From contig OZ024740.1 of assembly GCA_964016885.1 (NCBI GenBank), forward strand, positions 285,944,001 to 286,008,000: 64,000 bases of DNA, in the 5' to 3' direction. Origin of the DNA: Eledone cirrhosa (Eukaryota). The first letter of the stretch is position 1, and each line of letters starts with the position of its first letter. The translations under genes were made by a program, and so were the position numbers. Under the pieces are notes generated by a model. The model was not told the origin of the DNA. It did no database searches and was given only the letters and a program-made list of their open reading frames with translations. Shown here piece after piece: positions 6,966 through 61,348 of this stretch.

Positions 6966-8627
6966 TAATAATAACAACAATATGTATATTATACACATGC
7001 CACATGTAAGTACAGCTGTATTTAAATAGATATGCATAGTTTAGTTTATTTTAATATCTAGTTAACATCAATAGTGATACTTTTCTTTAAAAAAAAAAAA
7101 AAAATGTTTTCTTCCAAATAATTAGGATGCATACTTTATCCTCCAAAATACATTAGCTATAATTGTGAACTAAATTTATCGATAAGAATTAGAGAATAGA
7201 CATCGTTTTATATTTTCTCTCACAGGAATTGTTTTCTGACAAATATGTTCACTTTAGTTAAACTTATCAAATTGTGGTTACAGCAAGTATATATAGTAGG
7301 GTACTGCAGTTAGTATTTTGTAATCTTGATGAAATTTAAGAACAACCATTTATTCAAATGCCTCTTTTTTCTGGGAAGATTTTTAACAAAAATGTCAGCA
7401 GTGCTGTCTTAATTATTTAAGACAATGAAAACATAATCACATTTCAAACTAGTGTTTGAACTTGGTTAGATTTTCTGTCATTGCTAATTAGTAAGGTGGA
7501 GTCGAAGTGCCCAGAAATTAGCCTACTTTGTTATTAACTACGATTTTGGTTTCTCAAACATAAGGTTAGCCCCAGCATAAGGTCACTCAAAGGTTATATC
7601 TTCATCTTGTCTTCCATGTGATTGTTCATTGTGAAATGGGTTTGGCATTTTCCTATCTACTCCTCCATCCTGCTTTTAATATCAAAAACAGTAAATGTTT
7701 TCAAAATATTTAACTGATTGTGTGGGATATTCAAAGATTTTGCTAATGCACCAGTAGTAAACGGTCATATGTTGTTTTGTTATGAAAAGTGAACTGTAGC
7801 AGACGGAGCTTGTTAAGGTCATCGCTTTATGTTAGTCTTGAAGTTTTTGTTTCCTATTTATGCAAGGATTTATTTTTAAGTTCTTCATACTTTTGTGATG
7901 GTGGCAGGGAATATTTTAATAAAGAAAGTAAGGAAAGGATCCAATTGTCAGATTGTACCAAGGAAACTATGTTTCCATCAGTCTTTCTATTGTTGATACT
8001 ATCTGTCTGTCACAACTCCTGGCAGAAGAAAGGTGTGTTGATCATCAGATTGAACCAAAGAAACTGTTTCCATTGCTGATATTATCTGCTGATCACAACT
8101 CCTAGAAGAAACAACTGTTTTTTCTGTAACAGGCAGCAAGATTTGAACTCAGAAAGTACAATTTCTCCAATCCAATGCCCATGGATTGGTATTTCATCTA
8201 TTGACCCTGAAATAAAGTTGACCTCAGAAGGTTTTGAACTCGAAGTGCAGAGAGTCAGTCCAAGAGCATTTAATCAAATGCTCTAATGACTCTGCTTTAG
8301 TGTTTTGATGAACATGTCTTCATATATTACTCATTTAAACATGTCTTCATATATTACTCATTTAAACATTTCAGTTGTTTAATGTGAACATGTTACTAGG
8401 GAGTCCTATGGATTAAAGTTATTTAAAAAGAAGAAAAAATAGAGAAATCTTTCACAAGAGCTTTCTTCCAATATTTCCCTACGTTTCCATGTATAGAAGG
8501 AATGAGTATTGACTAGTGATTCTCAAACTTATTTTGTTGTGGAATATATATATGATTCTTTTTCTAATTATAGACTCTATACTTTTATTTAATGAACAAT
8601 ACCTATCACTGTAATTTTAATAAGTTA

Positions 8628-40731: not shown

Positions 40732-41166
40732 TCTCCTTATAATATATAACCAGCAATTTCTCTGTCTGTCTGTCCGACAGTGGAAACACGTGCGCGCGTG
40801 CGAATGTTTTTTGCGCACGCGTAGAGAGAGAGAGTGAAAGAAAGAGACAGACTACGAGAGGGGGATAGCGGGAGAGAGAGTGAATAGACGCTAATACACG
40901 TGCGCGCGAGCGAATGTTTTTTGCGCACGCATAGAGAGAGAGTGAGAGTGAAAGAAAGAGACAGACTACAAGAGGGGGATAGCGGGAGGAAGAGAGGGGG
41001 GAATTGAGGAGTGCTACAGAAACATATATACATTTCTGTGTGTCGCACGCATAGAGAGAGAGTGAGAGTGAAAGAAAGAGACAGACTACAAGAGGGGGAT
41101 AGCGGGAGGAAGAGAGGGGGGAATTGAGGAGTGCTACAGAAACATATATACATTTCTGTGTGTGTG

Positions 41167-41207
<41 letters not shown>

Positions 41208-41334
41208 AATATATATACATTTCTGTGTGTGTAATATATATATATATACACACAGAAATATATATACATTTCTGTGTGTGTAATATATATATATATACTA
41301 GCAGAAAACCACTCGGTGGGTGGTTTTCTACTAG
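40732..41334 (+). mobile_element. Non-autonomous Helitron-like element 1
   Basis: Starts A|TC, followed by (CTGT)n and internal 120-bp tandem units. Subterminal hairpin CCACTCGGTGG(GTGG) and 3' CTAG. Confidence 0.65.
40924..41163. repeat. Two 120-bp tandem units, plus a diverged partial unit from ~40785
   Basis: Sequence at 40924 and 41044 is identical at an offset of 120. Confidence 0.9.
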
Positions 41335-41772: not shown

Positions 41773-43603
41773 TGCCTAATAAAATGCTATTAGGTCATGA
41801 TACAGAAATGCAGGCACTGGGAAAGCTTTGAGCTTTAGCACTTAAATTCAGATTAACAACTGATTTAGATAATGCAAGATAGAGATTAGATATGGTCTTG
41901 TGCAAACTAGACTAATAGATTCTGGATGATTAGATTTTATGGTGAGTAATTAGTTTTTACAACACCAACTTTTCATATTTTTGAAATTCCATTAAAATAC
42001 CTTATTGATTTTAAGTAGATTGTTAGCTTTTTGTTCAGCATGGCTAAATATTAGCCAGTTGTTGAGTAGAACAGTTTTGTCATTTATGTTGATAGTCATT
42101 TAAGCAGCAAGTGTTTTAAGGCCATTTTTCCCTGCTAAAGCAGAAGTTAGCCTTTTATGACATAGATTATGTAGGTCTTATGCAAAGTTTCATGCTCATC
42201 ATGGTGTCGTTTTTGAAGCAATGTTTTATGGTTGAATGCTCTTCCTGGTGTCAACCCTTTTAGTCACTTCTTACTAGAATCAAGTGCATCATTAAGGATA
42301 ATTGGAGGTAGCATACAGCTAGCAAGTTTAATAACAGTAGAATATGTAAATGACCATCCATTGGTTTCAGTGATGAGTGTCCAGTTGTTTTATCAAAGGA
42401 ACAGCATACTTGTTAAATTAATGTATCATGTCACATGTATTCTTAAAGTAACTCTGAGGAAGATTCAGCATGACACAGTGTGTGACAAGGTTAACACTTT
42501 GAATTACAGACAGGCCATCTGATGAGCACAGTTTCCATTTACTGAATTTCACCAACAAGGCTTGAGTTGACTCAAGGCTTTAGATAAATGACACTTTACT
42601 CAATATTCCATGCAATGTAATACAACCTTGAAAGCCATGATTGTGAGGCCAAACTGTAGACATTGTCACATTGACATAAATGGTAGACTGTAGGATCATA
42701 ATAAACTCATCATTGACATTGTTGCAAAGCAAATTCTTTAACTACACAACTGTGCCTGTTGAAACTTAAAGGCCTTGAGGTACATACTTGCTATATATAG
42801 CTATATGTATTTACATCAATTATCTGATTATGCTTTCACCCATTTATTAATTGTCAATTTATGAATATTACTATAGATCGTATCATTTACATTCTTTTTC
42901 AGTTTATAACCCCTCCCACCCCCTCCCTCCTGATAAAATCAATTTACATAACAAATTTTTTTATAGTCACAAAACCAGCCTTGATTTATGATACAAAACT
43001 GCCCATTTTAAAATGTTCATACTTATATCAAAACCTTTCATCATAATTTTATTTTAGAAATTTTTGTTAAATAATGTTCTAAATATCAGTTTGCTAATGA
43101 AAAACTTATTTTATTAAATTCCCCCAAATTTTTGGTTATTTTCAAAATTAATTGAAACACATTGGTAATGTTTTTCTTCAGAAATATGGTAATGAAAAGG
43201 TTAACCAGTAAGTCAGTTACTAGTAATGATGTTTCTATCTATCAATCTATCTATATATATCAGGAGGCACATGGCTTAGTGGTTAGAGCATTGGCCTTGC
43301 AATCAAAAGGTTGTGAGTTCAATTCTCAGACCGGGTGATGTGTTGTTTCCTTGTGCAAGACACTTTATTTCACATTGCTCCAGTTTACTCAGCTGTAGAA
43401 ATGAGATGATAGGGACTGGGGTCCATATCATTCCACTGCAAAGTGGTCGTGGAGATGCCACGGCAAAAAAAGCATCCAGCACTCACTGTAAATGAGGTTG
43501 GTGTTAGGAAGGGCATCCAGCTGTAGAAATAAAGCCAGAATCAGTTCCCGTCCCACCCTTGCAAGCAGGGAAAAGCGGGCGTAAAATGATGATGATGATG
43601 ATG

Positions 43604-43842
43604 ATCAGTAATATTAATAAATGGAAGCTATCTTTATAAAACCATATTTATTTTATTATATATATTTCAAGGGTACCAAAATTTTGGTACGTTCTCATCA
43701 GATAAAATACAAAAGTTGGTTTACAGATAGTGACATATTCAAACTAGATGAGAGTGTACCAAAATGTTGGTACCTTTGAAATATATATAATAAAATAAAT
43801 ATGGTTTTATAAAGATAGCTTCCATTTATTAATATTATTGAT
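43604..43842. repeat. Long inverted repeat (96-bp arms, 47-nt spacer); probable inverted pLTR pair of a Penelope-like element
   Basis: Arms 43604-43699 and 43747-43842 are reverse complements with few mismatches; (TA)n follows at ~43930. Confidence 0.85.
43649..43709 (-). ncRNA. Minimal type-I hammerhead ribozyme motif
   Basis: Minus strand: UAUUUUAU-CUGAUGA-GAACGUACCAAAAUUUUGGUACCCUU-GAAA-UAUAUA-UA^AUAAAAUA. 8-bp stem I, intact core, palindromic stem III, imperfect base of stem II. Confidence 0.65.
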
Positions 43843-45876
43843 ATTATACTCCAGAAGAATCTTGTTGAGTGCTTCTAATCTGTTATAAACTAAATTTGTT
43901 GAATAATCAACAAATTAAATAACTGATTGCTATATATATATATATATAGATATATATAATACTGCTAACATTTGCCCAAATTACCATGCAGTAATTAGGT
44001 TGGAAATCTTATTTTTTTCATTAATGTTCATATACGAATTTTAAACTATATCAAGTTAGACAGTGTAAGCTGGCTTTTTTTTTCTGCAAGTGAGATTAGT
44101 CTTGTTGGAATTATTTTTTTTATAATAAGATACACCACATTTTGTTTTTTCACTTAATCATCATCATCAATTAATGTCCGCTTTCCCTGCTAGCAAGGGT
44201 TGGACAGCTAATATTTAATTTAATTTAATTTCAACTGTAATATTTATTCCCTTAATATCTGTATGCAGCTGCTGTTTCCGTCTGGTTGTGCTTCTTCAGT
44301 ACAGACTAATTAGGGATCTATTAAATTTATTAAAAACATTTTTCTCTCTTTTTAGAATCACAAGCCCTTCTCTGGCTTGCTGGTAGAAAATGTAATACCA
44401 AATTTCTAATTAATCCTATTTCTTATGCATTAATCCTCTGATGCTCATTTTAATATTTGGATTTTTTTTAAAATTTCAATTTTATTTTATTTAGTTTGTG
44501 GGAATATTGTAAAAGATATGGAAGATGTTGATTGAAAATTTCCCATATTACAACCTCATTTAAAAGATTTTTGGTAATTGTCAGTTTACAACTGGAAATC
44601 TCTTTTCATAATAATTTGATGTTATCAAAAAAGGTCAAAGGATTTCAAAATGTGTTATCTAGATGTTATTTGCCTGTATGAAAGCTATTTTTCTTCTAAA
44701 ATAATAGTTATTTTTTATTCATGTAATCTAACAGAGGGATCCAAAACAATTTGATAGTATTTTTTTTTTTTTAATCAGTTAATATATCAAGTTAAATATT
44801 TCCACTACTAAGTGAAAGACTTGCTAGCAGAGGACAAGTATGTTTGACAGTATTTTATAATTAAGTACAATTTTTAAGTTTTCTGCTATTAAATTTAATT
44901 AATTTTCCTTCCTGCTTTCATTTGCTCAGCAGGCAAAGTTATATATAAACATTTTGTTGATTAGCCTACTTTAGACGAATTCAAAGAATGGTATGAAATT
45001 TAATTTCAAGAATGTTGTTCTTTCAGTATCATTTTACCTATATTTGATAGACATCCTCTGTTAATGATATCAAAATATATTTTGGAATGGAGAAAAGATC
45101 AATAATTAGCTATTTTCTAAGTATTAAATTCATTCTGATGGTAATTAATGCTATTCATAAATGCTTCATTTATATCTAATAATTCTATTTTATGGGTTAT
45201 TTGTTTAATACTCTTTCCCTTATTTGATGAGCCATATTTTTGCCTTTTTTGGAGTTATAAAGAGATTGATGTACTAAAAGGGTCGAGAAATTTTCATTTT
45301 TCTTACATCCCTACTCCCTTTTCTGGAAGGGCTGAGTCATCTATTGGTTAATGTGTGCAAATCTTCCTCCCTATTTCTTTTCATTCATCTCTCTCTCCCT
45401 CTCTTCATCCCTCCCTCCCTTAGCTTTTTTTGTTTCTCACTCTCTTCCCCTTTACTCATCATCTACTGCCATGTGCCAAAGGTATACTGAATCATTCCAG
45501 CAGCTGTTAGATAGTAAATCTATTGCTCTTGTTGCCCAAACAGCAGGCAAAATTCATCTGTCTTTTAGTTGTTCTGGTGCCACTATAAAGAAAGAAACTG
45601 TGCTAAAACCTGATAGTTTCCTCAGTTCTACTACCTTTTTTAATTTTATTTACTTAACATAATGTTAAATGTAGACACATTGCCTTGACCTCCACAGATA
45701 TCCGATTGTTCTGTCATAATTGTATTTCATGCAGGCTGTTTAAATAGTGGAGTGAATTTAGGTTAATTTAAATGTTGATTACTACTCTTTCTTCATTATC
45801 ATATTTTGAGTGTATTGTATTATAACTTGTTTCAAACAGCAGAGTTTCTAGTGCATTCTTTTATTTTAGTATCATC

Positions 45877-59191: not shown

Positions 59192-60194
59192 ATTGAAAAA
59201 CTCCTGAATAAAATTTTTTATATACATTGAATATATGTATTTAAAAAAAAAAGAGATTGTGTTAGAAAATAGCCCAAAATGAAAATTTTGCCATTAAATT
59301 AGTATCATTATTGTTTTACCTCCATTTCCTATGCCGGCATGGGTTGGATAGATTGTCACAATCTAAGAGAAAATATGGTTGAATAGCCACATCTTGCTTA
59401 GATATTACATATTTTGACATGGTTTCTGACAGGATACCCTTCCTAAAGTTAGCCACTTCATGGGGTGTACTGGGTGCATATTATGACACCAGCACTAGAG
59501 AGGTTGTCAACATACTCAGCTTTATTATAGAGTCCTCTCAATGTTGGCACCATGATAAAATGTACCCAGTACAATTTGTAGCATGTGGGATCATAAGTAA
59601 GTGAGATGCAGCCCCTAGCCTATATGAGAGATCAGTAAACCCAACTGACTTGGTCTCTGATGACTTGTGACCTGTGTTCAATCCTTGCAAGCATGGAAAA
59701 GAGATGTTAAATGTTGATAATGATACTGATTCAGTAGAATCTTCTTTTATATACGAGAACATTTAAAGTATCAAATAGTTCAAATTAACATTAACAAAAA
59801 TAGTAGCCTGAAGTTCTAAAAAGTAATGTAATCCACCACATGCAACCCAATCTGGCAACCATGGCACATGCGCGTGCACACACGCACACACACATGTGCA
59901 TACATACACATACACGCACATGTGCATACACACACACATACACACACACAGTTATTTCCTCAAAAGATACCCGATATTTTGAAAGATCTGTTTTGTTTGC
60001 ATTGTTTTGATCATTTGTCATGCCATTTACTCTAGTTTCTTGATAATGATTGTTTTACTGACCTTATTGGCTAATCTAATCAGTTTATTTGCTTTGTTGT
60101 AAGAAAATCAATTGAGTTTTATAAGAAATTGCAATCTCTGTCGTAAGTGAATTTTATGGGATTTTAATTTCAATTTTTCTTTTTCTTTTTTCAG

Positions 60195-60270
60195 TTTTGG
60201 CAAACGTCCTCCAGGATGTACACGGCGGACCAGCGAGTGCCTTACTTTGGAGCCATCGGAAATGATTGTG
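60195..60270 (+). CDS. RAPGEF2: Internal exon of PDZ-GEF (Rap guanine nucleotide exchange factor 2/6), N-terminal cNMP-binding-like domain
   Basis: Long polypyrimidine tract with CAG acceptor and GTCAGT donor; 76 nt, phase 2 to phase 0. Encodes FGKRPPGCTRRTSECLTLEPSEMIV, matching the recalled RAPGEF2/6 segment FGKR…RR..EC..LEPSEMIV in motif and length. Confidence 0.9.
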
Positions 60271-61348
60271 GTCAGTGTTATTGCTTATTATGTATGTTTT
60301 GTGTGTATCTGTGAATATAAAATGTATTGTAAATGTAATTGTGTTCAGTTTCAGTGTTTTAGAAGAAAACTGGATATGATAGTGTAAAGCAACTATTATA
60401 GTGCTTGCAGTTGTAGTGTTTAAATGTTGGCATTTCACTCCTTTCAAATTGATTTACCAAACACAAGAATACTTAATGTGGGAATGAAATTTTGGTGAAG
60501 CTGCATTGCTTAGTGATTAGGGTGTTAGACTTATTATGATCATAAAGCCATGTGTTTCATTCCTAGACTGGGTAGTGTGTTGTGTTCTTGAGCATGATGC
60601 TTCATTTCATGTTGCTTTTCTTGATATGGCTTTGACCCCTAACATTAAAGCACCCAGGAATCCTCCTGTGAGATGCAACTTTGAGGGAGGCTAGCTAAAC
60701 TTGTGCTGGTGTGAGCTGTAAGTTTCATTTCATTTAAATTCTCTACTAAGTGGGCCCTTGTCAATCTAATAGTTCTTAACATAGCGTGTCCATCACCTCC
60801 AGGCAGCCATATAAGCAACTTGTCCCTACCTTCCTGCTTGCTCTATATTAGTGGTCCCTAATCTTACCACTACGTTGAAATAAAATTTCCTACAGATCCC
60901 CACCTCCCACTTCAATTACTTCCATCCCAGATTGCTATACAGTGAGAATAACAATCAGAAAAGAGAAATGTTTAGACTCAGAGAAGAATGGATACCCAAC
61001 AGAATGTGCATATTATGTTTTTAACAAAGTGTTTGAAATTTCAAAGCTCACAGAGTTGGGAGCAGCTGCTCTATATGTTAACTTAGCAATCATCCTTCAG
61101 AAAGCTCTTTGTAGTGCTGTCTACTTATCCCAAAATGTTCTAACTTCAATTGAGCTTGTTTATGACTGACGGTGGGAAATTGGCAGAGTCGTTAGGGTGT
61201 CAGCTAGAATGCTTTGCTGTATTTTTTTTCAGTTTCCTTTGATCTAAGTTCAAATGCTGCTGAGGTCTACTTTATCTTCTACCTTTTTGGGGTTGAGAAA
61301 TAAAATACCAATCTAGTACCGAGGTTGATTCTTTTTTCTCTCTTGCTC

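Follow-up and report, generated by a model that had tools for sequence, protein, structure and literature searches.

A hammerhead-bearing inverted repeat of Eledone cirrhosa is very probably the truncated, inverted end of an abundant Penelope-like retrotransposon

Introduction

An inverted repeat that holds a hammerhead ribozyme motif, intact on one strand and apparently broken on the other, raises the question of whether the break matters to the gene around it. Such a repeat occurs in the window analysed here, 64,000 nucleotides of Eledone cirrhosa (assembly GCA_964016885.1, contig OZ024740.1, positions 285,944,001 to 286,008,000). A sequence-only reading had taken it for the end of a Penelope-like element (PLE) in an intron of the PDZ-GEF gene, with the intact core antisense and the disabled one sense to the host. 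We find with high confidence that the insert to which it belongs, of 328 bp, comes from an abundant Penelope-like retrotransposon of the Hydra clade, whose hammerhead-bearing end it represents in 5'-truncated, inverted form. It was likely placed by one insertion event at (TA)n. The break on the sense strand has another origin than first thought.

Structure and extent of the insertion

The two arms of the repeat were located at 43604-43699 and 43747-43842; each is 96 nt long and they are 95% complementary, with 5 differences between them and a 47-nt spacer. The repeat itself is as first described; its extent was underestimated, the element continuing through a missed tail (43843-43931). Since aligned copies begin at 43604, run to 43931 and then enter (TA)n, the 89-nt tail stands at the right side only. 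The whole insertion, to which we assign no strand, is 43604..43931, and the family boundaries are sharp at both ends in 28 aligned copies. It joins an inverted and a tail-bearing 3' end, i.e. two pieces of the pLTR. The left, inverted arm (43604..43748, minus strand) begins about 47 nt before the hammerhead core, reaches an end site called A, and is 95% identical to the end of an ORF-bearing copy, L061. The right arm (43747..43842, plus strand) is followed by the tail on the same strand, which ends at a second site, B. Beyond lies a (TA)n microsatellite (43932..43960), the likely target, as most family copies end in (TA)n. No contig bridged this site when an empty allele or a target duplication was looked for.

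On its left the insertion is directly abutted by a separate element, a tRNA-like SINE with an (ATG)n tail (43263..43603, plus strand, approximate start). Rfam scores a tRNA in it at 28.5 bits (43272-43329; cut-off 29), ARAGORN finds no tRNA gene, and the SINE is abundant in all four DNA runs. The same adjacency recurs in L016, L029, L032, L040 and L050, for which shared microsatellite targets are the likely cause. Elsewhere in the window, 40786-41300 holds two identical copies of a 120-bp direct repeat, together with a (TG)/(TA)/(CA) hairpin array, which matches many microRNA models below threshold, a low-complexity artefact.

The hammerhead motif of the window copy

The type I layout claimed for the minus strand of 43649-43709 is real and each of its elements lies where it had been placed: the 5' strand of an 8-bp stem I (43709-43702), CTGATGA (43701-43695), stem II (43693-43670), GAAA (43668-43665), the palindrome ATATATAT (43665-43658), A17 (43657) and the 3' strand of stem I (43656-43649). 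The palindrome AUAUAUAU takes the place of stem III and the predicted cut falls between 43657 and 43656 of the minus strand; the CUGANGA core, GAAA and UH triplet are all present. The search by descriptor and covariance models that the sequence-only reading had proposed gave a divided answer. The hammerhead descriptor matched once in the window (43701, minus strand) and not at all in each of 100 Markov-resampled windows. By contrast no Rfam hammerhead family matched the window at E<=10; that search returned sub-threshold matches only, chiefly of microRNA and snoRNA models on hairpins.

A mismatch at the base of stem II had also been noticed. It is an A-C at 43692 and is private to this copy, the pairing base being kept in 98% of the family depth. 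Another mismatch, a C-C at the third stem II pair (43691/43672 in the window, minus strand), recurs across subfamilies whose neighbouring pairs differ, and may be a conserved structural feature. As a monomer the window copy disfavours the hammerhead fold, at -1.9 kcal/mol against -9.0 for the minimum free energy structure. The sense strand of the insertion is predicted to fold into the long hairpin that had been foreseen (96 bp, -150.6 kcal/mol, z -20). Either strand forms such a hairpin, so that the "intact" antisense core would be buried too, in any read-through RNA. This burial, the private mismatch and the lack of a tandem partner together make the window copy probably inactive.

The sense copy was truncated, not mutated

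The sense copy had been described as disabled, with CTAGATGA (43744-43751) replacing CTGATGA. This apparent core is in fact an inversion junction: its CTAGA belongs to the left arm, whose far end it forms, and not to an altered core. Among 22 occurrences of the left-arm end in the fetched loci (duplicates retained), 20 continue with ACTT and the other 2 are the window locus itself. The right arm opens at GATGAG, and its GA (43747..43748, no strand) is common to both arms, a 2-nt microhomology which yields CTAGATGA by juxtaposition. That the sense copy lacks the 5' strand of stem I was correctly seen, because the right arm starts two bases into the catalytic core, without C3, U4 and that strand; L160 starts at +2.

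The sense copy was therefore truncated at insertion rather than mutated, and its layout is not peculiar to this locus. In 80 copies chosen solely by a 26-mer of the tail (80 of 171 matches), the inverted piece is present in 45, of which 16 have the layout of the window, and it is absent in 35; the junctions vary. Tail arms end past the core in 36 of 79 mapped cases.

Linkage to an autonomous element

Walking upstream from the element end, we met a 3' UTR of about 1.1-1.4 kb, then a GIY-YIG-type nuclease and a reverse transcriptase (RT). A 184-residue piece of this protein, used as query, gave 66,021 first-look candidates. The element end is present in 17 of 20 loci picked by protein in 10-kb fetches (it is absent from L102, L108 and L116), collinear with the 3' UTR of the RT/GIY-YIG ORF, which bears out the reading as a Penelope-like end. 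The linkage with PLE ORFs, suggested earlier as a check, extends to tandem pLTR-to-ORF junctions: in L109 and L113 one finds successively the hammerhead, site A, the tail, site B, about 55-60 nt and the ATG. Some PLEs also have a spliceosomal intron in the leader. In full-length relatives the order is pLTR-ORF-pLTR, the pLTRs being direct repeats that carry the hammerhead on both flanks of the ORF. Two members of a sister subfamily, L300 (574-4310; G000:C4:336034600..) and L301 (564-4270; G000:C3:35526500..), are full-length: each has an uninterrupted ORF of about 742 codons enclosed by a matching pair of hammerheads, at a spacing of 3,851 bp in L300 and 3,724 bp in L301. This subfamily is probably young.

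The predicted fold of the ORF (pLDDT 88) matches reverse transcriptases. By Foldseek E-value the bacterial DRT2 reverse transcriptase comes first and telomerase second, and telomerase chains have the highest query-normalised TM-scores (0.37-0.39). The GIY-YIG-type nuclease motif was read by eye. Pfam recognised none of three copies of the ORF but did match a homolog, P0071; a PDB sequence search with the ORF returned no solved structure. In the majority sequences of three subfamilies the long 3' UTR contains no second ORF of at least 70 codons besides the nuclease end. Two further retroelements lie in or near copies of the family: an unrelated LINE on the element-antisense strand beside the Hydra copy of L061 (197-2921), and an unrelated RTE-like RT inserted inside the Hydra ORF of L062.

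Conservation of the hammerhead was assessed in 22 leaders (20 found by protein, plus L109 and L113), located by a 3' anchor and not by the core. The anchor occurs in 15 of them and the hammerhead layout in 14 of those 15, with CTGANGA in 13 of 14 (position 7 is variable) and GAAA in all 14. Pairing is kept by compensatory changes from A-U to G-C, in stem I of L301 and at the first, basal pair of stem II in L300, L301 and L317. The family maintains both the core and the stems. The type I hammerhead with its palindromic stem III belongs to the element itself, and its cleavage is predicted as a dimer or with help from a protein. Relatives found by the descriptor, a partly circular selection, show other palindromes such as ATGCGCAT. 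With this palindrome and the same stem I, another hammerhead family occurs at L006 1351, L018 3067-3196, L047 2698-2766, L058 2378, L102 9047 and L113 1000-1123, also as inverted pairs.

The linkage bears on two other origins for the insert. An insertion that is short, inverted, TA-flanked and very abundant might suggest a foldback DNA transposon or MITE, with a chance likeness to hammerheads in its terminal inverted repeats. MITEs have terminal inverted repeats and a fixed internal structure; here the repeat is not terminal at the right, where the tail follows, the inverted arm is missing from many tail copies, and the junctions vary. Above all the insert aligns collinearly with the 3' UTR of a reverse transcriptase ORF, and this linkage refutes such an origin, leaving it a negligible probability. 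The second is a non-LTR retrozyme, a non-coding tandem unit making circular RNA, which would share the type I hammerhead and palindromic stem III and would suit the many short non-coding copies. Retrozymes are short, non-coding head-to-tail units, each with a hammerhead. No such array exists at the locus and the only tandem unit seen is the ORF-bearing element of 3.7-3.85 kb, so that this origin too is extremely improbable. We retain the Penelope-like end.

Probable membership of the Hydra clade

The Hydra clade is defined, in the accessible text of Craig et al. 2021 (PMC8557442), by RWK, DKT, a CxCX5C linker, loss of CCHH, (TA)n targets and canonical hammerheads. Our family has DKT instead of DKG (SDKT in L099 and L298-L301; among 120 homologs, 95 have DKT and 0 DKG). 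The CxCX5C linker, of the type CNCRNELSC, is found in 112 of 120 homologs, and C526, C528 and C534 are invariant in 116 sequences. CCHH is absent, as judged by eye from the lack of CxxC within the GIY-YIG nuclease core, and the preference for (TA)n is that of most copies. The RWK position is occupied by RWR in L113, L298, L300 and L301, a conservative change. The likeness to the clade as described there further includes the single ORF with RT and C-terminal GIY-YIG, CxxC and CxH in the nuclease, a hammerhead close to the 3' end, its stem II flanked on either side by one extra base, and the palindromic stem III. Besides RWR, our family differs by its unit length (3,724 and 3,851 bp versus "<3 kb", a descriptive and not a defining feature), its 3' UTR of 1.1-1.4 kb, its tail of 82-89 nt versus 30-40 nt, and its tens of thousands of copies. 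By these motifs, and by comparison by eye with named Hydra proteins, the family appears to belong to this clade, which the sequence-only reading had not named.

A named element from an octopus is Hydra-1_Obim of Octopus bimaculoides, listed in the accessible supplement of PMC8557442. It is of the same clade, and its N-terminal, DKT and RT blocks align with ours by eye, but its hammerhead sequence is unrelated, its length is 2,507 bp and it is recorded with "no pLTR". Since the hammerheads differ while the proteins align, ours is, as far as these sequences tell, a separate family within the known clade. Compared with the minimal PLE hammerheads of Cervera and De la Pena 2014 (PMC4209133, in the parts available), that of our family is alike in being type I, with a long stem II, an extra base after A9, a palindromic stem III, predicted cleavage as a dimer, and many solo and opposite-strand copies. 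It differs by a longer stem I (8 bp), by the recurring C-C mismatch of stem II, and by a first stem II pair that is A-U in this subfamily (G-C in a sister one).

Penelope-like expansions have been reported in O. vulgaris, in a paper whose accessible text mentions neither hammerhead nor Hydra (PMC13282606). No paper on this family came up in a search of mainly open-access literature, and it may already be catalogued elsewhere, as in Repbase.

Family size and lineage

Searching the genome with the element gave 4,353 first-look DNA candidates, and an exact 24-mer bearing the core occurs 2,037 times, its reversed control 0 times. In the DNA run that holds the locus, depth adds up to about 5e5 on the element, compared with about 10 on the single-copy flank; this is a rough guide and not a copy number. 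In the DNA runs of three other organisms, all three examined, the neighbouring SINE is abundant but reads at 85% identity leave the element essentially uncovered, so that the family looks lineage-restricted. It is a large burst of Hydra-clade elements, apparently confined to the source lineage. Within it the window locus is an ordinary decayed copy among tens of thousands, and is unlikely to be relevant to its host gene.

The host gene and the orientation of the copies

The PDZ-GEF gene named by the sequence-only reading is RAPGEF2. The exon that closes the host intron lies at 60193..60273 (plus strand) and is 96% identical to residues 4-29 of Octopus vulgaris RAPGEF2; upstream exons are found at C1:285723913 and C1:285774381 (plus strand), 264 and 213 kb upstream of the element, and the remaining exons follow on the plus strand. 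As homology places exons on both sides, all on the plus strand, the element would lie, as claimed, within a long-isoform intron of about 230 kb. The nearest identified exon is 16 kb away. Several other motifs were seen along the gene. A second copy of the family (L192 2082-2337; G000:C1:285746082) lies on the sense strand, with GAAA changed to TAAA in its core. Hammerhead-like motifs of other families occur in RAPGEF2 introns in L153 (minus, C1:286012643), L154 (minus, C1:286018416), L206 (minus, C1:285889914) and L216 (plus, C1:286119826), the latter in sense about 300 nt upstream of an exon. L154 also contains, at 7142-7408 (C1:286025142), a RAPGEF2 exon with a polyglutamine/histidine tract whose length differs from that of Octopus vulgaris.

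These copies give some ground to the idea that selection acts at the locus: sense hammerheads would cut the pre-mRNA, and intronic copies would persist only with a broken sense core. Over 414 kb of RAPGEF2, 5 of the 6 descriptor matches are antisense (one is weak; p=0.22), and the sole other sense copy of the family seen in this gene is the one with TAAA. Tandem retrozymes are moreover excluded from introns, according to the accessible part of a preprint (10.64898/2026.07.22.740005). Several observations go the other way. The break in the window is an inversion junction of a kind frequent in the family, many tail arms being truncated past the core as well, and a single minimal hammerhead was left uncleaved in vitro, as reported in the available text of PMC4209133.

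An indirect form of the sense and antisense count that had been called for revealed no bias of orientation. We used T-over-A skew as a proxy for the direction of transcription, this skew being positive in 36 of 41 pieces of RAPGEF2; with downstream-only 8-kb flanks, single-core copies divide into 16 versus 16 (mean -0.003 +/- 0.009), an indirect measure of low power in which a likely duplicate pair, L292/L293, was retained. An earlier version with 3-kb flanks leaned the opposite way (42 versus 18 of 60), probably through unmasked T-rich UTR, and was set aside as contaminated by the UTR of the element. Selection on the sense core is in sum rather unlikely.

Co-option of the hairpin by the host, as a regulatory dsRNA or as a substrate of A-to-I editing in RAPGEF2, is less likely still. 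The strength of the predicted sense-strand hairpin would suit such a role, and RNA editing is heavy in octopus. Incidental editing would nevertheless imply no function, the arms have drifted by 5%, the nearest identified exon is far, and the family is undetectable in the DNA runs of the other organisms. We consider this co-option very improbable, and the locus remains for us a truncated end of the element.

A possible mechanism for the inverted ends

Two fixed 3' end sites recur in the copies, A at about +100 to +105 from the core and B at +187. Inverted arms end at site A in 35 of 43 cases, and the partner arm ends at site B. Many 5' ends gather at -81..-73, some 77 nt before the core (those of 19 of 37 inverted arms and of 12 of 43 tail arms). 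A hairpin has its 5' side here, a position more in keeping with an RNA start than with a stall of the polymerase. A rare C at 43819/43627 is common to both arms of the window copy, T being found in 98% of the family depth, and fits the use of one template. We also considered a pile of 5' ends at the hammerhead cut site, as a hint of cleavage in vivo; 3 of 24 fall in +37..+47, no excess, and TA microhomology confounds this count.

Twin-priming offers an analogy for such structures. In the mechanism that we propose, the RNA of the element would begin some 77 nt before the hammerhead. The protein would nick both DNA strands, and each would prime reverse transcription within the leader of the uncleaved RNA, one strand using site A and the other site B. 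The two short cDNAs might then be joined by microhomology into an inverted repeat with a one-sided tail; in the window copy the B arm stops within the core. A full element would have its hammerhead cleave as a dimer or with protein help.

Much of this has a parallel in the Poseidon element PAc of Anolis carolinensis (Frangieh et al. 2024, PMC11167929). In vitro, according to the accessible text of that paper, both DNA strands are nicked and extended, the spacing of two internal RT start sites defines the tail, targets are AT-rich, uncleaved RNA is the main template and the hammerhead requires protein. The two elements differ in that the ORF of PAc starts inside the hammerhead, with the start sites within the ORF, whereas in our family both sites precede the ORF, within a leader whose ATG comes about 240 nt after the core.

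A similar hairpin, RCUC-stem-loop-NN-GAGY-RCU, follows each of sites A and B at a distance of 5-7 nt, and site B is itself spanned by a helix. The first of the two leader copies is at 43848..43873 (plus strand), 5-7 nt 3' of site A. A pseudoknot around site B was dropped, since a nested fold accounts for the pairing. Within the source genome, covariation of the leader hairpins is weak (two-sided change at 3 of 24 pairs). The motif is also recognised by eye in the available sequences of the published Hydra-2_Amil, Hydra-1_Ajap (twice), Hydra-2_Ajap and Hydra-1_Crog, from coral, sea cucumber and copepod, with a weaker variant in Hydra-1_Obim; it is not seen in the incomplete Hydra-1_Amil. No description of it was found in the Penelope-like literature searched, PMC11167929, in its accessible part, being the sole related paper returned.

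We tentatively propose, with somewhat less than even confidence, that this twice-repeated leader hairpin might be a docking site in Hydra-clade elements. Each hairpin would set one RT start 5-7 nt upstream, so that the spacing of the hairpins would set the tail length (82-89 nt), and a protein dimer priming from both DNA strands would produce the inverted A and B ends. The commonest short copies would then be cDNAs that extend from site A or B as far as the RNA start before the hammerhead.

Significance

The family is more useful than the locus, as it offers intact full-length relatives and a large burst. Two priming sites, a probable RNA start and a repeated hairpin of the leader can be read from its copies, and the formation of PLE tails and inverted ends becomes testable in a second clade. 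Combined with gene annotation, the copy number would also make it possible to ask, with good statistical power, whether host pre-mRNA is cut by these hammerheads in vivo.
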